DNA of 64,000 nucleotides from contig NZ_DAMDGT010000002.1 of assembly GCF_032102605.1 (NCBI RefSeq), forward strand, positions 55,113 to 119,112, given 5' to 3'. Positions 50,726-63,533 of the stretch are shown piece after piece; within the stretch, counting starts at the first letter, position 1; the number at the start of each line of letters is the position of its first letter. Origin of the DNA: Achromobacter sp. (GTDB lineage: Bacteria > Pseudomonadota > Gammaproteobacteria > Burkholderiales > Burkholderiaceae_B). The notes below the pieces were generated by a model. That model had not been told where the DNA came from. It worked only from the letters and a program-made list of their open reading frames with translations, and ran no database searches. Position numbers and translations under genes: made by a program.

Positions 50726-52975
50726 CTACGCGTCTGCCCCTGGAGCAGACTTGGCTGCTTGCTCAAGTACAGCTTTGTGAATGGATGCAAATTGGTGCGC
50801 GACCTTTCTCGCCGAACTACCGTCAGAGTGATACTCCGGCGTGTCTAGCTCTGCACCGTAACGCTCCCGCAGGTTCTCCATGACGAAGTCGGGTGAGATA
50901 CAGGATGCGATGGAATCATAGTTACCTCGTTGCAAAAATGACCGGACTGGCATTCCACTTGCCATCTCCCACCCTTCCCCGACATAGGTGTCGAGGAACA
51001 CATCTATGCTAACTGGGTCGTGCTCGAAGATCCCTCGTAGGTACGCCTCGACCTCATCTTTACCGCGCCCCTTCTGCCAATCCCAATAGAGCCCTGGGGC
51101 GTCCATTGGCGTCGTTAGGAAAAGCGGACCTTCAGCGCTTGCGTCTCGAACTCTGCCGGCGAATAACTCGTAGATGGCATCGTTTGCGTCGTCTGGCAAG
51201 ACGCGATGCGCCTCCGGCTTGTCCGGATAGTGAGTGAGCCATCTAACGCACTCGCTGCCCAAAGCCAACGGCTGCGCAGCTTCGACGACCGCCTTCACCG
51301 CATCGAGCCGGTGCGCCATCGCGATCTGCCTCATTAGTTGAGATACGAGGATAGCCGCTTGCAGGAAGGTGCCCCCCATGACATAGGGCCCACGCTCTCG
51401 CGGAAGCATCTCGCCGTTCCGAACTATCGCGAGCGCCAAAGGAAGTGCTGCGATTTCGTCGACGTCCTCGGCCCGGTCCCGAAGCCTCTCAATCAATCGC
51501 GGCATCGCCCGATCGGAGTATTTGCTCAAGATCGCACGTTGCGCCTCTGGATCACCCGCCGCTAACGAAGCGATTAGATCGGCAATTCCGCTATCGGCAA
51601 TGTCGCCTTCCGGTACCCCGTAAACAAAGTAGCGTTTGAAATAGCGGCTCGAACACAAGCGTTGCTCTGCCGTCCACTGCTTATCCCATTCCGGGCCGTA
51701 CGTCATTGTGTCGACACGCGGGAAAAGCGGTACCAACAGCCGTCGCCTAACAATGTCGCGCTCCTTTGCCGTAGAGAGTGGCATAGCAGCTGCCAGGACC
51801 TCGTCTAAGGGCGACGGCTGGGCTTGCAGTGGGTTACGCACACCGTCGCGGGGCTCGCCTTGTAGGAACATATCTGGCTCGTCCCGTATTGCAATGTATA
51901 GCCGGGGATACAGTAGGCGTAGTCCTTCAATCAACATGAACTCGGCAATGTTCACCTCGCCCTTTACAAGGGGCAGCGAAAACATGAGAGCGTTGATGTA
52001 CTGTTTTGCAAGCCGCGGCGTTTCTAGTTTCGGCTCCAGACCGTCCACAAACGGGCGCATGAACTTGTCAACTTGCGCCTGGTCGATTGATATGTCGGCT
52101 TGCTGTAAAGCGCGGTCCACCCCTTCGAGGGTTATCTTTCGAAGACTTAGGCGGTCGGCCGGCGGCAAGTGCAGAGGTACTTGAATGATCTTCTCAAGGA
52201 ATGCACGACCTGCCTCGGCGCCCCCCGCTCCATACCGTTCACCGAGCGCAGCGGAAACCACCTCGTCATCAAACGCCAGCACGTAACATGTGTACTTAAA
52301 GCTAGCCGACAACTTGACCAGCTTGAAGATCGCGTGTGTCTCGTTCCTGTCCAGGCGATCGATGTCATCAATGAGAATGACGAGCCTTTTGCCGCTTTGG
52401 AGTAGCAACTCATCGATCTCGTCCTTTACCTCATCAAGGCCATCCTTCGATAAGGCCTCTCCGAGATTCTTAGCAGCTTCTCCAGGGTTGATCTCCACGC
52501 CCGGCACCGCTACCGATACCACCGACAGAAGTCCGCCGTACTTTCCCAATAGCGCAGCCGCCCGCTTTCTGAATGCGGGCTCCTTGCCCAGCCCTTTGGC
52601 CAGGGTCGCGAAGAAACCACGCAGGAGCGCATCCTCGGACGGAAAGTGCCATGGGTTGAATCGTACTGCTATGGAGTTCTCATGAAGACCAAGCGACTCC
52701 TCCATCATTTTGAGGACCGATGTTTTACCGTCTCCCCATGGCCCGTAGAGACCTATAACTACGCTTGAGGGATCTTCCCGTTTCGCTATGGTGTCTGCGA
52801 TTCTGGCAGCGAATGTCGCGCGCCCAAACCGATCCTGCGTCTTCGTCGCTATGGGATCGTCGGACACATATAGACTTCCGGTTTGCTCCTCAACCGTTCG
52901 CTGCGTCGAAGTAGCGTCGTTCCGACTGGGCGGGGACGCTGCTTTTCGTCTAAAACAGTTTTTAAACCAACCCAT
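50726..52975 (-). CDS. KAP-family P-loop NTPase
   Basis: Walker A IGLYGPWGDGKTSVL and Walker B/KAP signature LVILIDDIDRLD, with a long helical C-terminal region. 749 aa; no obvious TM insert. Confidence 0.8.
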   Translation of the reverse strand: MGWFKNCFRRKAASPPSRNDATSTQRTVEEQTGSLYVSDDPIATKTQDRFGRATFAARIADTIAKREDPSSVVIGLYGPWGDGKTSVLKMMEESLGLHENSIAVRFNPWHFPSEDALLRGFFATLAKGLGKEPAFRKRAAALLGKYGGLLSVVSVAVPGVEINPGEAAKNLGEALSKDGLDEVKDEIDELLLQSGKRLVILIDDIDRLDRNETHAIFKLVKLSASFKYTCYVLAFDDEVVSAALGERYGAGGAEAGRAFLEKIIQVPLHLPPADRLSLRKITLEGVDRALQQADISIDQAQVDKFMRPFVDGLEPKLETPRLAKQYINALMFSLPLVKGEVNIAEFMLIEGLRLLYPRLYIAIRDEPDMFLQGEPRDGVRNPLQAQPSPLDEVLAAAMPLSTAKERDIVRRRLLVPLFPRVDTMTYGPEWDKQWTAEQRLCSSRYFKRYFVYGVPEGDIADSGIADLIASLAAGDPEAQRAILSKYSDRAMPRLIERLRDRAEDVDEIAALPLALAIVRNGEMLPRERGPYVMGGTFLQAAILVSQLMRQIAMAHRLDAVKAVVEAAQPLALGSECVRWLTHYPDKPEAHRVLPDDANDAIYELFAGRVRDASAEGPLFLTTPMDAPGLYWDWQKGRGKDEVEAYLRGIFEHDPVSIDVFLDTYVGEGWEMASGMPVRSFLQRGNYDSIASCISPDFVMENLRERYGAELDTPEYHSDGSSARKVAHQFASIHKAVLEQAAKSAPGADA

Positions 52976-53045
52976 AGCGAGCTCCAGTTGCCCGACGCTC
53001 TCCGGCCGCGGGCATGTTTAGTCGACGTCGACGTTCGGCACCGCG

Positions 53046-53639
53046 CTAAGCTGCGCAAGCATGCGGATCGAGCCTCGTGCCACTTATCGCGGGCAAAGAT
53101 TCACCCAGGGCCGAAGCAACATCCACATACAGCTGAACGATGGCATGGTGAAAGGCTGTACCGCGCTCCACCTTGCCCTCCATCACTTCCACATCGAGCT
53201 CTGCAAACGGGGTGTCTTTGTTACTCACAACGAACGCGCGGATCCTCTTCTCCATGTCTCCCGCGTCGACCTTCCCCCGGCTTCCAACGACCTCCAGCAG
53301 ACGAGATAGCTGACGGGGCGCCTCCACACCATAGGTATGCGCGATCTGGTTGCGGCAATCGTTCAGGGTGCGCAGCGCCGACCAAGGATATGCATTCCGT
53401 CGGAAACAGAATTGTTTGACTAGCATGTCAAGCTTGTCGCTAAAACCCTTGCGATAGAGCTTCCTTTGGTGCACCTTCCTCAACAGCGCGTGCGCCATCA
53501 GACTTTCAATGAAAAGGTGCGCCAGTAGAATTGGGCCGACCGAAGACGGCCGCTCCATTAGGAACAAGTCTCTCGCCCGCCGAACATTAAGGGCGGAGAG
53601 TTCCCTCGGGCTGCGTTGTACGGATTCTGGTTTTTGCAT
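53046..53639 (-). CDS. HEPN-like protein (Rx4H motif RNQIAH)
   Basis: 197 aa, all-helical appearance. N-terminal helix LFIESLMAHAL, and LNDCRNQIAH encoded at 53337..53354. Confidence 0.55.
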   Translation of the reverse strand: MQKPESVQRSPRELSALNVRRARDLFLMERPSSVGPILLAHLFIESLMAHALLRKVHQRKLYRKGFSDKLDMLVKQFCFRRNAYPWSALRTLNDCRNQIAHTYGVEAPRQLSRLLEVVGSRGKVDAGDMEKRIRAFVVSNKDTPFAELDVEVMEGKVERGTAFHHAIVQLYVDVASALGESLPAISGTRLDPHACAA

Positions 53640-53844
53640 GTCGAACTCTGATATATCGGGATACTAGAATACAAAAAATATCAAGTTGATACAATTCATC
53701 ACTGCCCGCTTGGGCATTGGTCTTGTCTTCCGTAGGGACTACGAACTCTCCGCCTTGCAAGTCAATCACTCTTAACAAGACCGTAACAATGCTGGGGCTC
53801 TTCGTTTAAACGCCCGGTTCAGCAGCTACCCATAACCGCTCCGT

Positions 53845-54384
53845 TTAGTCCGGGTCCGGGAACTCCAGGTGCATCCCAGTGACAAGGCATTTCACATAGT
53901 CAACCTCATCTTGCAGGGCCTTCGGGAAGTTTGCGGCGAACCTCATGAGTTCTGCGGAAACAGCATCTGCCTCGTCTGCAAATTTCTGAACATCCTTCAG
54001 CTCGTATGCCGTATCTTTCTGCTGGTGAAGAATCGTCGAGCTAACGTAGGCATCCGGTCCGTGTCCAAATGCTTGTATAAAAAGGGGATTGTGCGCAATT
54101 GCGTTTCGATTGCTCATAACGGGCCAGTACTTTCGCTTCTGCTCTTTCAGGCCCTTAGAAAGAGTGTCAGATAGGTGGTTTTTTGATATCTCAGATATTC
54201 GCCCAACGCGTAGAGAAAACTCCTCCTTGCGCCAAATCTCGATGTCTTCGGGTGCCAAAACTGCCAAAAGCTCGTTAACAGACCTCTCGATGCTTGCGGC
54301 TGCCAGGATCAGGCGCCCCACGGGATTTATCCACTGGTCTTGTTCGGACTTCGCCAAGGCCATGAACTCTTCGGACGACATCAT
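53845..54384 (-). CDS. HEPN-like protein (Rx4H motif RNAIAH), visibly lower-GC gene
   Basis: 179 aa. N-terminal helix AAASIERSVNELL, and MSNRNAIAH encoded at 54091..54108. AAGGA RBS before the ATG. Confidence 0.55.
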   Translation of the reverse strand: MMSSEEFMALAKSEQDQWINPVGRLILAAASIERSVNELLAVLAPEDIEIWRKEEFSLRVGRISEISKNHLSDTLSKGLKEQKRKYWPVMSNRNAIAHNPLFIQAFGHGPDAYVSSTILHQQKDTAYELKDVQKFADEADAVSAELMRFAANFPKALQDEVDYVKCLVTGMHLEFPDPD

Positions 54385-54646
54385 GTTTTCTATCCTTTTT
54401 ATGGGTAATTGCGCTCGAGATGGACGACATCAGCGCGCCGTCATGGGACACGAGATGATCGGGGATGATAACCGGATGCCCACCCGCAAAAGTGAAGTCC
54501 ACGTGAGGGAAAATTCCACACTTATGCGCGCCGTAAATTGTTGCCACCTGGAGGATCTTGGCTGGCCCGGTTTCTGTGTCAAACCAGACTCCTTATAGAA
54601 TCCACCCCGTGTCACAAGACATTTAGAGAGAGGTAGGGGAATTTTC

Positions 54647-55129
54647 ATGCGCAAGATCGACATCAACAGTCGAGAGTATCAATGCTGGCACGAGTTAGGG
54701 CACGCCGTGGTCTGCATACACCTGGGAGGAACCGTTGATCTGGTCGAATTTCTGAACGACCAGCCCCACGCCCAGGGCATGGCACGCGCCAGGTGCAATA
54801 CGAACGAAGAAATTCGTTCTCACGTCCTCTGTGGCGGTTTCGCCGCGGAATTATTCTTGCTTCGAAATCAATTTTTGCCGTCGATTTCGGAGAAGGAAAT
54901 CGCTCAGATCATATTTAAGAACGCGACCAAAGACCGCGAAATGTACTGGCGCCGGGAACTTCAGCCTGATGAACAATTCACCCGCGAGGAAGATGAAATA
55001 TTTATGAATCACGCCACAGCAGTGATGCGGATAGTGGGGACGTACAAGAGCGCGATTCAAACTCTCGTGCCGGGATTGTTGGAAGCAGGAAGACTCGATG
55101 GAAAGTGCATCCAAGATGCGATGGGCTGA
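54647..55129 (+). CDS. Stand-alone FtsH/M41-like zinc metallopeptidase domain protein
   Basis: CWHELGHAVVCIHLGG (HExxH encoded at 54689..54703) followed by LCGGFAAELFLL, paralleling the M41 HEAGHA...GGRAAEE pattern. 160 aa, no ATPase domain. Confidence 0.5.
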   Translation: MRKIDINSREYQCWHELGHAVVCIHLGGTVDLVEFLNDQPHAQGMARARCNTNEEIRSHVLCGGFAAELFLLRNQFLPSISEKEIAQIIFKNATKDREMYWRRELQPDEQFTREEDEIFMNHATAVMRIVGTYKSAIQTLVPGLLEAGRLDGKCIQDAMG

Positions 55130-55170
55130 ATGCCCAAGTCATTTCGCGACGAGCCGGCCCTCCACGTAGG

Positions 55171-55209
55171 GAAGAAAAAAAGCCCGCCCTTCCAAAAGAA
55201 AGGCGGGCT
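55171..55209 (-). terminator. Rho-independent terminator after ssb
   Basis: AGCCCGCC / GGCGGGCT stem with an A-rich run on the plus strand (T run on minus). Confidence 0.7.
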
Positions 55210-55239
55210 TTAACCAACAAAAAGTTGGCTTAGTAGGTT

Positions 55240-55707
55240 TTAGAACGGAATGTCATCATCCATATCTGCGAGCGAGGAGCCGGCGGCCTGTTGCTGCGTG
55301 GCGGGGCGCGCATTGCGTTGTTGCGCCGGTGCGGGGCTGGGTTGCTCGTCGCCCCCGCTTTCGCCACCCCCACGTCCGCCCAGCATCTGCATCTGGTCTC
55401 CGACGACCTCAGTGCTGTACCTGTCCGCCCCCGTGTCCTTGTCCTGCCATTTCCGCGTCTTGAGTCGGCCCTCAATGTAGACCTGACGGCCCTTCTTGAG
55501 ATACTCGCCTGCGACCTCAGCGAGGCGGTTGTACAGAACGACTCGATGCCACTCCGTCTCCTCGCGGCGTTCCCCGGAGGACTTGTCTTTCCACTGCGAC
55601 GTCGTGGCGATAGACAGATTGCAGATTGCGGCGCCGTCCGGCGAGTAGCGCACCTCGGGATCTCGTCCCAAGTTCCCAACCAAAATCACTTTGTTGACCG
55701 ATGCCAT
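55240..55707 (-). CDS. ssb: Single-stranded DNA-binding protein
   Basis: [21 protein letters not shown]...[32 protein letters not shown], a Gly/Gln-rich linker, and the C-terminal DDDIPF tip. Confidence 0.95.
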
Positions 55708-58895: not shown

Positions 58896-59918
58896 TCATG
58901 CTAGCGATTGTTGCTCCCCTTGAGCGCCAACGTCGCCGGCGTTTTCCGCCCCCGCAGTCGGCTGTTTGCGCGAACGCTTCTCCATGGCTTCCGTGACTTG
59001 CAAGTGCGTCTCGCGGAATGCTTCAAGCGCCGATTTGCTGATTTTCACCGTGACCAGGTCGGCTTCATCTTCCAGACCCGGAATTTCGGCGGTCTCGCCC
59101 TGCAGGAACCCTTGAAGATACGGCGCGACCTTCGTCATTGCGTCGTAGAGGTTCGGCACGTATCGCGGAGGGACCTTGGGCCCGGTCGAAAGAACCTTGC
59201 GGGTCACCCTCGCTTGACCCATGGAATCCGCGATCTTGAGCCCCTCCAGGAGGCGCTCCTCCGCTTTGTCGCCATGTGACTTGAGGAATTGGACCGCCAC
59301 GGCGGCCGACACCTTGTCCTCGATCACCATCTGTCGGATTCGGCTCGGGGCGCCCATCAGCGAGAGCAAATCGTTGACGTACTGCTCGCTGTAGCCAAAA
59401 CGACGGGCAATTTCGGATACCGACACCTGATATCCGATCATCCGCTTCATCAAAATGCCCAGCTCGTAGGGTGCGAGCGGTGTGCCCTCTTGGGCATTAG
59501 CTTGAGCCACGGTGAGGTCAACCATGGTCGTGCCCTTGGGCAGCACGATCATGGGAATACGCTCGATCTTCGCTCCGTGCTCCCGCGCCCATCCAGTCGC
59601 ATGATATCGGGTATGCCCCTCGGTCAGGTAGAGCACGTCCAGGCCGCCTTCGCGCGCAACATAGCCCTGGACGGGCTTGTCCGGCGCATAGCCGTTGGCG
59701 AGGATCAGGCCACCGATGTACGCGACCCGCTTCCGCCATTTTTCGTTGTTGATGCGGGGCTGCCATCCAGGAATCAGGCGGATCTGCTCATACGGCACAT
59801 TCCAGAGGTCCGAGCTCTTCGCGCCCGCGGCGTCCATGCTCGCTTTCACATTGCCTCGCACGAGTTCGCGATCGACGGTCGTCGGCGGAAGTTGGTCATC
59901 GAGCACTTGGTCATTCAT
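58896..59918 (-). CDS. ParB/Spo0J-like N-terminal domain protein
   Basis: AAGGAGA RBS then ATG at 59918 (MNDQVLDDQ). ParB-N-like core VLYLTEGHTRYHA, followed by the HTH-like segment VSEIARRFGYSEQYVNDLLSL. Confidence 0.65.
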   Translation of the reverse strand: MNDQVLDDQLPPTTVDRELVRGNVKASMDAAGAKSSDLWNVPYEQIRLIPGWQPRINNEKWRKRVAYIGGLILANGYAPDKPVQGYVAREGGLDVLYLTEGHTRYHATGWAREHGAKIERIPMIVLPKGTTMVDLTVAQANAQEGTPLAPYELGILMKRMIGYQVSVSEIARRFGYSEQYVNDLLSLMGAPSRIRQMVIEDKVSAAVAVQFLKSHGDKAEERLLEGLKIADSMGQARVTRKVLSTGPKVPPRYVPNLYDAMTKVAPYLQGFLQGETAEIPGLEDEADLVTVKISKSALEAFRETHLQVTEAMEKRSRKQPTAGAENAGDVGAQGEQQSLA

Positions 59919-60289
59919 GGCGTTCTCCTTGGCCTTTGTAAGGCGCTGACGCAGACGGCCTCGATAACTGAATGGGCTCGCTGCGGATGGTTGGGCGATG
60001 CGCCCATAAGGGCCGAGCAAAGCTACTTTTGAAGAATTATAAATTGGCGCTTTATTCAACGTAAAGCATCAATTAATATTAGCCTGACCAAAAGATGTAT
60101 CCATGCCTCGTTGAATTTGGTTCTGCCAATGAAAAACGCCCCAAACCGTGGAACGGCCGGGGCGCTAGTCTCGTCGGATGAAGCGACTTGGAGAGAGTCG
60201 TTGACGATGCACAACGAGCGATGCATCGAGTGGAATTAAAGCATAGCTAAATTTGCTCCGTAAGGGGCAAGCACGCCAAATTTTGCGAC

Positions 60290-61111
60290 ATGACCATGCC
60301 AACCGAATTTATCGAACCGTCCGCGAATGGCCCAACTGCTGAGGCGTACGGCGAACTGTACGTGGCGTTCGAGCATTTCAACCGGACCATGTTCGACGCG
60401 CAGCTCCCACCGTGCCTCATAACGCTGCAACGGCGCAAAGGCACCTATGGCTACTTCTCGAAGGGCCGCTTCGTACGACGAGGCACGGGCGACATGGTCG
60501 ACGAAATTGCTTTGAACCCGGCCTACTTCGCAAGTCAGACGATCAAGAACACGCTCTCCACCCTGGTTCACGAACAAGTCCACCAATGGCAGCGCCATTT
60601 CGGGAGCTTCAGCCGGCGCGGGTACCACAACAAGGAATGGGCGGACAAAATGGAATCCATCGGACTAATCCCGTCCCACACGGGCAAGCCAGGCGGGCGC
60701 AAGACGGGTCAGCAGATGGATCATTACATCGAGGCCGGCGGCGCCTTCGACTTGGCTTGCGACTCGCTGCTCACCCGCGAATTCACGCTTTCCTGGCTCG
60801 ATCGTTTTCCTGCCGAGCGGCTTCCTGTCGGTCCTACGCCGGTTGCCACGACCATTCCGCCGGCCACGTCAGACGCGCTGACGACGACACCCGGAATCAC
60901 ATCGACGGCATACCTAGGGCTAGGTCGGGCCGAATCCGTACTTGCGCTTCCCTCGGGCGATCCGGTCAATCGGTCCAACCGCGTCAAATACCGATGCGCG
61001 ACTTGCCTCACTCAGGTTTGGGGAAAGCCCAATCTGAAGCTTAGGTGCGGTATCCCGATGTGCCGCAACGCCCCCTTCGAGGAGTGCGGAGCAATTACGC
61101 AATGCCCATAG
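60290..61111 (+). CDS. SprT-like zinc metalloprotease domain protein with C-terminal zinc ribbon
   Basis: KGTYGYFSKGRF...EIALNPAYF...LSTLVHEQVHQWQ (HExxH) and C-terminal YRCATCLTQVWGKPNLKLRCGIPMC. Confidence 0.7.
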   Translation: MTMPTEFIEPSANGPTAEAYGELYVAFEHFNRTMFDAQLPPCLITLQRRKGTYGYFSKGRFVRRGTGDMVDEIALNPAYFASQTIKNTLSTLVHEQVHQWQRHFGSFSRRGYHNKEWADKMESIGLIPSHTGKPGGRKTGQQMDHYIEAGGAFDLACDSLLTREFTLSWLDRFPAERLPVGPTPVATTIPPATSDALTTTPGITSTAYLGLGRAESVLALPSGDPVNRSNRVKYRCATCLTQVWGKPNLKLRCGIPMCRNAPFEECGAITQCP

Positions 61112-61183
61112 CACATAACGCCATTCCCATCACTCAAAGCGCCTTACTGACACCCAACGGGAAACCTCCCAGACGACTCCATC

Positions 61184-61810
61184 ATGAGCACCGAACCCGC
61201 TACCCAGAAGCGCCTAACCGTGCGCGAGCTGCAAACCATCCTCACCGATTGCGATCCAGACGCGATCGTGGATTTGACTCTGCCGGGCTTCATCGACGTG
61301 AGCGATAAACAAATTGTTGACGATCCTGATCTAGTGAGCGATGCGTACGGCTTCGTGCCGCATGTCGAGGCCTTCTACAGGACCGGGAAAGACATGCCCT
61401 ATGAGCACTTTTTCGGCGACGACGGCGCCCCCCGTCCGGGCGTAAAGCCTAATGCAGTGTCCATCGCCATTCCCCGGGACGACGTCGAAAAGCTGTACCG
61501 AGACCGCAAGCGTGCCATCGAGCTCGACGATCCCGCGTTGGAGCCGGAGCCAGCGACCGCCGACGCCAACACCGTTATCGTGGACGTGCGACTCTCGCGA
61601 GAGCTTCACACCACCATCCGACAGTTGTTGCGCCAGCTCAACGGCTCGCACCAGGTCAAGATAGAGCAAGGCTGCACACATGGCCTGCTAACCGTTGCGG
61701 GTGCGCTGGAAATGCTTGCGGAAGACCTCGGCATGGTCGGGAGCCGGCCCGGTTCCTGGGAAGGCTCAAACATGGCCCAGGTGCTCGCTTCACACGGCTA
61801 CGACAATTGA
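61184..61810 (+). CDS. Hypothetical protein
   Basis: 208-aa acidic ORF followed by a bidirectional terminator. Confidence 0.45.
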   Translation: MSTEPATQKRLTVRELQTILTDCDPDAIVDLTLPGFIDVSDKQIVDDPDLVSDAYGFVPHVEAFYRTGKDMPYEHFFGDDGAPRPGVKPNAVSIAIPRDDVEKLYRDRKRAIELDDPALEPEPATADANTVIVDVRLSRELHTTIRQLLRQLNGSHQVKIEQGCTHGLLTVAGALEMLAEDLGMVGSRPGSWEGSNMAQVLASHGYDN

Positions 61811-61904
61811 GCGGCATCCTCGCCGGGCTCGCCCACGCTGGCACATGCACGCCTGCCCCGGCAGGAGTGCCTTCGTGGAGAACTGACCGCCCCCTGTCGA
61901 GGGC

Positions 61905-61936
61905 AAAAAAAAACCCTCGAACGAATCGAGGGTTTT
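61905..61936. terminator. Bidirectional rho-independent terminator
   Basis: A9-CCCTCGA-ACGAA-TCGAGGG-T4 between convergent genes. Confidence 0.75.
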
Positions 61937-61948
61937 CCGGGCGACGTG

Positions 61949-62077
61949 TCACGCTGGATGGTGACCCGACTCGCGCTGTTTCTCACGGTCAGTCTTCACG
62001 ACGTTGTTGGCGACGAACAGGCCGAAACCAACGACGGCCGCAAGGACGCCAAGCATTACAGCGGTTCCGAGATCCAT
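61949..62077 (-). CDS. Small single-TM protein (42 aa)
   Basis: AAGGAG RBS then MDLGTAVMLGVLAAVVGFGLFVANNVVKTDREKQRESGHHPA. The ATG lies 1 nt after the upstream stop. Confidence 0.4.
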   Translation of the reverse strand: MDLGTAVMLGVLAAVVGFGLFVANNVVKTDREKQRESGHHPA

Positions 62078-62078
62078 A

Positions 62079-62459
62079 TCAGTCTCCTTGCTTCGTGCCG
62101 TAGAACAAACTGGCCAGAGCCAATGATAGCACCATCCCAAGGGACAGCCCAACCAACTTTACGTACAACACCCACGTTGCCGCACCCCAGTTTGTTTCAA
62201 ACGCCACAGTAGCGGCCCCGACACAACTGGCGATCGCAACACCCACAAAGAACTGGCCGAAGGCCTCTCTTTGCTTGCCTACGGGGTAGGTCAACGAGCG
62301 CCAAAGAGGCCCAAACAGGTTCCTTTTCAGGTTGCCGAACATCTCCCGCGTGGGCGGGTGGTAGAACTCCGCCACTAGCCACATTAGGGCCAGGGGGCTG
62401 AGAATCAAGAACGCAATAAGCATCACCCCTCCTAGATACAGATAGTAACATCCGCGCAC
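62079..62459 (-). CDS. Small polytopic membrane protein
   Basis: 126-aa ORF with 3-4 hydrophobic segments. Start uncertain. Confidence 0.4.
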   Translation of the reverse strand: MRGCYYLYLGGVMLIAFLILSPLALMWLVAEFYHPPTREMFGNLKRNLFGPLWRSLTYPVGKQREAFGQFFVGVAIASCVGAATVAFETNWGAATWVLYVKLVGLSLGMVLSLALASLFYGTKQGD

Positions 62460-62510
62460 GCACGAGGCCCGTGCGGTGCCGGAATCTCTCTCAGTAGCCC
62501 TAGGTCGTCT

Positions 62511-63011
62511 TCATGCCCCGGTGGCTGGCTCCCGCCAATAAAAAACCCGGTTCCAGAATGGAACCGGGTTGGGGTCAGTCAATGGCCTGGAGGATCTCGC
62601 GCGCCTCAGCATGGCCGCACGCGAAATCTCGCAGAGCCATGTACAGGTCGAGATGGTTTTCTGTTGGCTTTGGCACGCAAGCGCGTAGAAGCCAAAAAGG
62701 CACGCAATGATGCCCGCCGCCTCCACCGATACCTCGCCGCTATAGCCGTTCATCGCCTGCACGACGCGAACGCGCTCCTTCTGCATGGAGGGCACCATGA
62801 AGAAGCCCCCATTCGACAGCTCGAAAAACTCCCAATAGCCGCCGCGGTATTCGCTGCACAGCATTTCCATGTGGTTGTACACCTGCGCCTCGCCGATCAT
62901 GAGGTACCGGAGGCCAGGCCCAAAGTACTTGGGAAGGATCGACAGTCGTCGATCCCCAGACACCTTAGTCGCCTGAATGACGTCCGTACCCTCTTCAACT
63001 GCTGCATTCAT
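62511..63011 (-). CDS. Antirestriction protein (KlcA/ArdB / YfjX-type, Pfam Antirestrict-like)
   Basis: GGAGAG RBS then ATG at 63011. EAQVYNHMEMLCSEYRGGYWEFFELSNGGFFMVP parallels the conserved GGYW.FY.LSNGGFYM core of this family (from memory). Confidence 0.65.
   Translation of the reverse strand: MNAAVEEGTDVIQATKVSGDRRLSILPKYFGPGLRYLMIGEAQVYNHMEMLCSEYRGGYWEFFELSNGGFFMVPSMQKERVRVVQAMNGYSGEVSVEAAGIIACLFGFYALACQSQQKTISTCTWLCEISRAAMLRRARSSRPLTDPNPVPFWNRVFYWREPATGA
62537..62568 (-). terminator. Terminator-like hairpin inside the last ~19 codons of the antirestriction ORF
   Basis: CCCGGTTCC-AGAA-GGAACCGGG stem with an A run on the plus strand (T run on minus). Confidence 0.5.
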
Positions 63012-63062
63012 ACTCTCTCTCCAAAAGGTCCGGCGGAATGCCGGGTTGCCGATTGAAGGTAT

Positions 63063-63533
63063 GTGGTCTGCATTCCTCGGTGGATGCCTTGGCACGCCCT
63101 ACCCCCGAAAAAAAGCGCCTGGAATGGACGGAATGGCAGACTACTGTATATTTATACAGTAACGGAGACTCTGGTATGCCCCACGACAAACATCCGCCCC
63201 CCCTTGACGTTCGCCCAGATCAGGGCACTTTTCGACGCTGATCCAACGGATGCCGCCCGCGCATACTGTTGGGAGATTGCGCGGCTTCACGCCCATCTCC
63301 TTGCGGCCTTTCGGGTCTATGAGTACTGCCAGGAAATGTGGCAAGAGGCCGTGCGCAACGGCGAACAGATGAAGGTGATGCCCGGCTCCCTGCTACTGAT
63401 GGAACACAAATCAGCGCTGCTACGGGAACCCTGCGTGCAGGCCCGTCTTGATGAGCAATGGAAGGACCGGGACAAGCCGTTCACGAGGTACTACCCGGTC
63501 AGAGATCTGGATCAGCGCCCAGACCGTGTCTGA
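63063..63533 (+). CDS. Hypothetical protein
   Basis: ORF-track entry with a GTG start. The conserved-looking part begins around LTFAQIRALFDADPTDAARAYCWEIARL. Start uncertain. Confidence 0.35.
   Translation: MVCIPRWMPWHALPPKKSAWNGRNGRLLYIYTVTETLVCPTTNIRPPLTFAQIRALFDADPTDAARAYCWEIARLHAHLLAAFRVYEYCQEMWQEAVRNGEQMKVMPGSLLLMEHKSALLREPCVQARLDEQWKDRDKPFTRYYPVRDLDQRPDRV

Follow-up and report, generated by a model that had tools for sequence, protein, structure and literature searches.

The stretch of DNA analysed in this study, further referred to as the window, comprises 64,000 nucleotides of an Achromobacter sp. genome assembly (GCF_032102605.1, contig NZ_DAMDGT010000002.1, positions 55,113 to 119,112 of the forward strand). 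In this window, two open reading frames (ORFs) of 179 and 160 amino acids (aa) are divergently oriented and separated by 262 bp (coordinates in Table 1), the former encoding a protein with a HEPN-type motif and the latter a protein that resembles the protease domain of FtsH. Both ORFs are present as described in an original prediction, made from the sequence letters, in which they were interpreted as a separately acquired, AT-rich module consisting of a putative RNase toxin and a metallopeptidase that controls it or provides immunity. By combining homology searches, structure models and a comparison of related loci, we found each of these genes to occur without the other.

Linkage of the two genes was tested by tblastn with both proteins over all fetched loci carrying a homolog of either. 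Of 11 loci in which a 160-aa homolog occurs, either full-length or truncated, none has a 179-aa homolog, and none of the 13 loci with 179-aa homologs, which represent about 4 distinct contexts, contained a 160-aa homolog. The search for conserved HEPN-peptidase adjacency that had been proposed as a check thus revealed no linkage of the two genes in other genomes. Moreover, natural variants of the locus itself were identified in three metagenome contigs (L029, L030 and L031) with approximately 91-92% nucleotide identity to the window, in which position 53697 is joined straight to position 54636, so that a 938-bp segment holding the 179-aa gene is absent. L029 and L030 retain the 160-aa gene, which is divergent there from a gene for a 197-aa protein, with a PifA-like gene beyond. 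In L031, an additional internal deletion of approximately 360 bp takes about codons 1-121 of the 160-aa gene, leaving an 11-nt leader and the 121-nt 3' end of this gene (L031:1000-1420) and keeping ssb and the 197-aa and PifA-like genes intact. L031 therewith constitutes a natural knock-out of the mini-protease. From these presence/absence variants it follows that each gene is individually dispensable and that they were not gained as one module. The separately acquired module of the original prediction is contradicted by the 179-aa gene lying on an indel of its own and by the deletion of the 160-aa gene alone in L031, and its protease-controlled toxin or immunity pair by the fact that no related locus carries both genes together. 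The arrangement in the window is no assembly artefact, since both junctions of the 938-bp segment are crossed, at approximately 99% identity, by contigs from at least 4 other public runs. No direct repeats or insertion signature were found at these junctions, where only short repeats at chance level occur, and the sequences flanking the 179-aa gene within the segment have no counterpart in the other homolog loci, in which only the coding region is conserved. Insertion of the segment into the window lineage is the simpler reading.

For the 160-aa protein, alignments and structure modelling support a stand-alone FtsH/M41-type protease domain. Its homologs fall into 29 clusters among 5.8 billion proteins, all of 117-191 aa and originating from Achromobacter, Halomonas and metagenomes, and a genome scan added homologs in Variovorax, Hylemonella, Steroidobacteraceae and other proteobacterial assemblies. 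Invariant in 27 aligned homologs are WHELGHAVV with H15-E16-x-x-H19, G64-F-A-x-E68 (the GGFAAELF region), E82 and D96-R97. The same holds for four cysteines (C13, C23, C50 and C62) that have no counterpart in FtsH, where they might bind a second metal or act as a redox switch in the 160-aa family. In the AlphaFold2 (AF2) model (predicted local distance difference test score (pLDDT) 92.5, predicted template modelling score (pTM) 0.88), HExxH is located within helix 9-25, and the best 50 Foldseek matches of this model in the PDB are all FtsH, YME1, AFG3L2 or chloroplast FtsHi chains (best E = 1.1e-5, TMq up to 0.62). The family profile in its turn matches Thermotoga maritima FtsH in the PDB (E = 5e-4) over the HExGH helix and the C-terminal helices. 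An hhalign comparison of the family with E. coli FtsH aligned the HExxH helix only, and scans of the protein against Pfam, NCBIfam, PHROGs and PADLOC yielded no match above threshold, with M50B (0.0024) and M41 (0.096) as sub-threshold matches.

The third zinc ligand of M41 peptidases is an acidic residue (Asp495 in E. coli FtsH), situated approximately 16 residues past the GGxxAEE helix. In a MAFFT L-INS-i alignment, which serves as a lead only, GGFAAE aligns with GGRLAEE of E. coli FtsH, and E82, 14 residues after E68, with Asp495. The invariant D96 is an alternative candidate for this ligand. HExxH begins at residue 15 and all 27 aligned homologs measure 156-191 aa, with neither an N-terminal membrane anchor nor an AAA+ module, and as the ATPase and the anchor are lacking, the 160-aa protein is not FtsH proper. 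A Pfam scan and the Foldseek matches, all to FtsH, gave no M78/ImmA signal in sequence or fold. The earlier description of an M41-like peptidase without AAA+ ATPase or anchor is thus supported, both by the family profile, which matches FtsH, and by the structural prediction, in which the M41 fold was recovered. Three loci (L023-L025) that had been picked up as relatives by DNA pattern were dropped, as they encode M50-type membrane proteases sharing only CWHELGHA.

The 179-aa protein matches nothing above threshold in Pfam, NCBIfam, PHROGs or PADLOC. Close homologs form 23 clusters from Achromobacter, Acidovorax, Paraburkholderia and metagenomes, and an exhaustive profile search adds approximately 64 distant clusters, mostly of 150-190 aa. 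Across 63 sequences that are only about 20% identical, the invariant residues are G23, E33, R93, N94 and H98, the latter three within RNxIAHNP (R93-N94-A-I-A-H98 in the 179-aa protein itself). Three features have been used to define HEPN domains, namely an Rx4-6H motif in which the arginine is followed by a polar residue (N, D or H), the position of this motif where helix 3 ends and the loop to helix 4 begins, and a conserved acidic residue upstream, and in Csx1 a beta-hairpin follows the motif (PMC3710099). The invariant R93, N94 and H98 agree with this spacing and with the polar residue, and the AF2 model (pLDDT 92.6) places the motif in the position so defined, at the C-terminus of helix 73-97, with a beta-hairpin (101-127) and the long last helix (129-170) coming after it. 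In addition, relatives of the 179-aa protein yield 15 sub-threshold Pfam matches spread over seven HEPN-clan families, and rarely over others (best E = 0.0022). On the basis of this motif, the model and the sub-threshold matches, we consider the 179-aa protein likely to be a HEPN-type, metal-independent RNase. Of the HEPN-like assignment made in the original prediction, the catalytic motif in its proper position in the model is hereby retained, whereas a significant match to any known HEPN family or fold was not obtained. An hhalign comparison of the superfamily with an ApeA HEPN protein gave no signal, and against BFVD, Foldseek returned a single neighbour, an unnamed phage protein (E = 3.5e-3). 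Judged from the ratio of non-synonymous to synonymous substitutions (dN/dS 0.10 for the 179-aa and 0.47 for the 160-aa gene), both genes are real and under purifying selection.

The genes next to 179-aa homologs vary. Acidovorax and Paraburkholderia have unknown genes at this place, and in prophage contigs the neighbour is a gene for a serine recombinase or SIR2. In L005-L010 and L026 (e.g. L005:6573-7358, L026:2826-3647), homologs of 77-80% identity have a Trypsin_2-like gene (261-273 aa) 3-39 bp downstream, and in L026 a gene for a KAP-family NTPase is convergent to the two. A HEPN-like gene with a protease thus recurs in these loci, but the protease has a serine-protease fold and is not M41. 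The window contains no remnant of the Trypsin_2-like or other partner genes. Two Acidovorax homologs (P0035 and P0040; L003:6001-6732) are extended at the C-terminus by a conserved stretch of about 60 residues (…AFEAKY.R.WEDPSGD.MKAIWADAWAAAKA), which looks as if it arose by read-through into, or fusion with, a small downstream gene.

The lower GC content that had been noticed by eye was borne out on computing. GC in the 1285-bp stretch of the pair is 0.512 compared to a window mean of 0.580 (z = -2.5, with a standard deviation of 0.027 over 1285-bp intervals), only 0.6% of intervals of this size are as GC-poor, and the minimum of the window, 0.504, is found in the 1285-bp interval that starts at 53401. 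At second codon positions (GC2), the pair genes reach 0.35-0.37 versus 0.41-0.53 elsewhere, so that part of the drop is due to amino-acid composition. At third positions (GC3), they reach 0.59-0.61 versus 0.73-0.77 in the adjacent backbone genes (ssb, a 426-aa and a 295-aa gene). The pair region is compositionally foreign, as supported by these values, and in this respect the AT-rich region of the original prediction stands, but the low-GC3 block is wider than the pair alone and extends over 50726-55239, from the PifA-like gene through the ssb terminator. The window itself is a conjugative element of the F-type, encoding TraN and TraU of the F-type and a tyrosine recombinase, with an RND transporter and a P-type ATPase as cargo for metal efflux, as well as a DEAD-box helicase, a Toprim protein, DsbC and ssb.

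Homologs of the 160-aa protein recur in bacterial defence islands, an association that constitutes guilt by association. In Halomonas chromatireducens, the homolog is found near a transposase and a PDC-S06 AAA_13 ATPase, and in another Halomonas near an integrase, a HATPase_c_3 protein that weakly matches REase_II of PADLOC, DUF3800, SIR2_2 and Mrr. The Variovorax homolog is located near DUF4238-Pers and the one in a Steroidobacteraceae genome near two ApeA-like HEPN genes. Further loci combine the homolog with DUF5677, AbiEi/AbiEii and a TOTE primase-helicase, with a NERD nuclease, or with a resolvase, NUDIX and a gene giving sub-threshold SAD_SRA and HNH matches. HEPN motifs are not enriched among these neighbours (12/75 versus a background of 84/363). 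An all-against-all BLAST of neighbours revealed no shared partner family near homologs of either protein. No member of the 160-aa family was found among 72,556 plasmids, among 50,697 phage genomes or in IMG/VR, and the plasmid and phage collections contained no match for the 179-aa protein either.

With a probability of roughly 0.6, we regard the pair as a chance adjacency of two independent single-gene cassettes, in which each protein acts alone and neither controls the other. Such cassettes would accumulate in a variable spot of the F-type conjugative element, between ssb and the PifA-like defence gene. The Lit protease of prophage e14 is a stand-alone HExxH abortive-infection peptidase. By analogy with Lit, the 160-aa protein, with zinc presumably bound through H15, H19 and E82 (or D96), would probably be an active ATP-independent peptidase acting on an accessible or unfolded target rather than an unfoldase-coupled degrader, and it would probably have a conflict (defence-island) function of its own. 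The 179-aa protein is predicted from its sequence to cleave RNA through the R-N-x3-H site (R93, N94, H98) and, in analogy with the small single-gene HEPN proteins of prophages and islands, would probably serve as a stand-alone abortive-infection-type effector.

Several observations weigh against this interpretation. The 938-bp indel may represent either an insertion or a deletion. The score of the 160-aa protein against Pfam M41 (PF01434) is 13 bits, compared to a cut-off of 29.9, no model of PADLOC-DB 2.0 matches this protein, its gene is under only moderate constraint when compared with its closest relative, and the defence-island association derives from approximately 11 loci. A HEPN-type gene does lie near a 160-aa homolog in two lineages, namely the 197-aa gene in the window and L029, and ApeA in L020. 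As for the 179-aa protein, the invariant E33 is located in the long first helix without K/R at +4 and therefore falls outside an Ex3[KR] motif, Foldseek of the model against the PDB gave nothing significant (best E = 0.43), and profiles of the family and of the superfamily found no sequence relative in the PDB, only coiled-coil noise.

That the divergent metallopeptidase activates, degrades or neutralises the HEPN-like toxin, both having been acquired together as a toxin/immunity module, would be in line with two adjacent, divergent and GC-poor genes, with the presence of a HEPN-type motif and an intact HExxH, with the HEPN-type neighbours of 160-aa homologs in L029 (the 197-aa gene) and L020 (ApeA), and with the different, Trypsin_2-like protease that close 179-aa homologs precede. 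It is largely refuted already by the comparative data, as the two genes co-occur in no other locus, contigs of approximately 91% identity keep the 160-aa gene without the 179-aa gene, L031 lost the 160-aa gene and kept the 197-aa gene with its HEPN motif intact, and HEPN motifs are not enriched near 160-aa homologs, and we consider it very improbable. The 179-aa protein might also be no HEPN RNase at all, with RNxIAHNP functioning differently, for instance by binding a ligand or protein as part of a helical adaptor, the likeness to HEPN then being convergent. The lack of a significant match to any HEPN in Pfam, PDB sequences or Foldseek, the one unnamed phage protein as sole structural neighbour and the unusual context of the conserved glutamate all point in that direction. 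Against it, exactly R, N and H are invariant in Rx4H spacing among sequences of about 20% identity, the motif sits at a helix end before a loop/hairpin as defined for HEPN, and the sub-threshold matches return repeatedly to seven HEPN families. We hold this alternative to be doubtful.

For the 160-aa peptidase, an anti-defence (establishment) role is conceivable, in which it would cleave a defence protein of the recipient, by analogy with the metalloprotease-containing ArdC and the SprT-like proteins of leading regions. Its gene adjoins ssb within a region with ArdB/KlcA-like, ParB-like and SprT-like genes, and the leading regions of plasmids are enriched in anti-defence genes (PMC11541004). 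The gene is oriented opposite to ssb and the other leading-type genes, however, whereas leading-region anti-defence genes share the T-strand orientation. Homologs moreover are absent from the plasmid, phage and IMG/VR collections and reside in chromosomal islands amid defence genes, and L031 lost the gene by deletion, all of which makes such a role unlikely. A regulator resembling ImmA/IrrE/CapP, in which a stress or infection signal would lead to cleavage of a repressor and thereby switch on the adjacent defence gene, could account for a small protease that is constant beside variable defence neighbours, often 36-170 bp away on the same strand, and for its divergent orientation from an integrase or transposase in two Halomonas genomes, a typical spot for regulators of elements. 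An adjacent helix-turn-helix (HTH) or repressor gene is not conserved, though, with only an HTH gene at 650 bp in L013 and a LysR gene in L014, the neighbours share no partner family, and the structural matches are all FtsH without M78/ImmA signal, so that we give little credit to this regulator. The 160-aa family could finally represent an undescribed single-gene conflict effector, i.e. an ATPase-less FtsH-type zinc peptidase of defence islands and mobile elements, with a possible Cys4 metal/redox site, that would cleave a specific host or invader protein upon infection or DNA entry, resulting in abortive infection or exclusion as in Lit, or that would sense phage factors aimed at the host FtsH. 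We regard this more specific proposal as possible, yet rather unlikely. The literature searched gave no account of M41 domains that stand alone in defence islands.

The features of the locus and its surroundings are listed in Table 1.

Table 1 Position of the two genes and of the surrounding features in the window
Feature	Position	Strand	Evidence and remarks
PifA-like KAP-family P-loop NTPase, 749 aa	50726..52975	-	Pfam KAP_NTPase 2.8e-48; PADLOC PifA 9.6e-74, profile positions 7-660 of 720; GC3 0.62
197-aa orphan protein, R96-N-Q-I-A-H101	53046..53639	-	70 bp upstream of PifA-like gene, same strand
Present/absent segment, 938 bp	53698..54635	.	179-aa gene as its only gene, flanked by 147 bp downstream and 251 bp upstream
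179-aa HEPN-motif protein, likely an RNase	53845..54384	-	Alignments, AF2 model, sub-threshold HEPN-clan matches of relatives
Divergent spacer, 262 bp	54385..54646	.	All but the last 11 bp inside the 938-bp segment; Shine-Dalgarno-like sequences for both genes
Predicted stand-alone M41/FtsH-type zinc metallopeptidase domain, 160 aa	54647..55129	+	Alignment, PDB profile match, AF2 model, Foldseek
Terminator-like element (GC-rich hairpin, T-runs) in the gap where the 160-aa gene and ssb converge	55179..55211	.	Terminator scan: 15-pair stem, 8 GC pairs; inverted repeat I7
ssb, conjugative-element backbone	55240..55707	-	Pfam SSB 4.7e-41; GC3 0.74
ParB-HTH protein	58896-60059	-	
SprT-like metalloprotease-fold protein	60290-61111	+	
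ArdB/KlcA-type antirestriction protein	62511-63095	-	

The PifA-like gene belongs to a known type of anti-phage genes and bounds the low-GC3 cargo block on the left. The 197-aa protein encoded next to it is likely to be a remote paralog of the 179-aa family, since hhalign against the 179-aa superfamily profile (P = 1e-3) aligns G..LA...IE, with the helix-1 glutamate, and RNxIAH. It gives a weak PADLOC match to RTasHEPN (0.0099), and its family counts only 3 clusters among 5.8 billion proteins. The 197-aa and PifA-like genes may form a two-gene unit, and the 179-aa and 197-aa proteins together probably constitute a new small family of a known superfamily. At the other side, the terminator-like hairpin marks the right edge of the cargo block. 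In contigs of runs X3 and X9, the match with the window ends at 55248, shortly past this terminator, and unrelated sequence follows, which suggests a further recombination junction where the block ends on the right. Further away, the gene set at 58896-63095 is typical of the leading region of a plasmid or an integrative and conjugative element.

In the 262-bp spacer, a simple scan detected no sigma-70 consensus promoter, nor was an Rfam family, an unusual RNA fold or a credible small ORF identified there. A protein-like ORF fragment at 54385-54547 (minus strand; IYGAHKCGIFPHVDFTFAGGHPVIIPDHLVSHDG…) finds no match in the fetched loci and may be a gene remnant that was brought along with the 938-bp segment. 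The one RNA-seq run with any of the region (X23, at low depth) gave a single contig that maps to the spacer only (54369-54615), which could stem from the 179-aa gene having a long 5' leader or from carry-over of DNA.

The main value of these results is corrective, as natural presence/absence variants contradict the reading of the locus as a protease with its toxin and show single-gene cassettes accumulating beside a PifA-like gene in a conjugative element. Of the leads obtained, only the recurrent association of an ATPase-less FtsH-type peptidase with defence islands deserves to be followed. If the mini-protease is active, the FtsH protease domain can be an autonomous, ATP-independent enzyme, and a new class of proteases would be added to the genes of defence islands. 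The 179-aa and 197-aa proteins would in addition bring in a new, small family of HEPN-like proteins characterised by RNxIAHNP.

In comparison with known systems, the 179-aa protein shares with small stand-alone HEPN proteins (Abi-type families, ApeA, Csx1/Csm6; PMC3710099) the Rx4H motif with asparagine after the arginine at the end of a core helix, and with Csx1 the beta-hairpin after the motif. Its invariant acidic residue upstream may correspond to the one in HEPN domains. Like these proteins, its family is found in mobile elements and at prophage ends. It differs from the described HEPN families in having no significant profile or structural match, an extended motif of its own (RNxIAHNP) and a long first helix, and from HEPN systems with partners in the absence of an MNT or antitoxin partner. 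The 749-aa neighbour resembles PifA, the KAP NTPase for phage exclusion of the F plasmid, by matching the PADLOC PifA model almost end to end, but is preceded by the 197-aa HEPN-motif gene, a partner that is lacking for its nearest plasmid homolog in Xanthomonas citri.

The peptidases ImmA, IrrE and CapP (M78, COG2856) are, like the 160-aa protein, small HExxH enzymes encoded beside variable defence or element genes, but they belong to another fold family and have an adjacent HTH repressor as substrate, which is absent for the 160-aa family. With the protease domain of FtsH, YME1 and AFG3L2 (MEROPS M41, Pfam PF01434), the 160-aa protein has in common the HExGHA first helix, the beta-hairpin, the GGxAxE helix, possibly the acidic residue starting the next helix, and the C-terminal helices. 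It lacks the AAA+ ATPase, transmembrane segment and periplasmic domain of FtsH, is approximately 40 residues shorter than its M41 domain, without the loop and hairpin after the third ligand, carries four invariant cysteines, and is encoded by island or element cargo instead of by a housekeeping gene. Lit is about twice as long and bears no sequence or fold relationship to the 160-aa protein, of which all matches are FtsH, but it is likewise a single-gene zinc metallopeptidase on a mobile element without an ATPase partner, and as such it provides the working analogy for the 160-aa protein.

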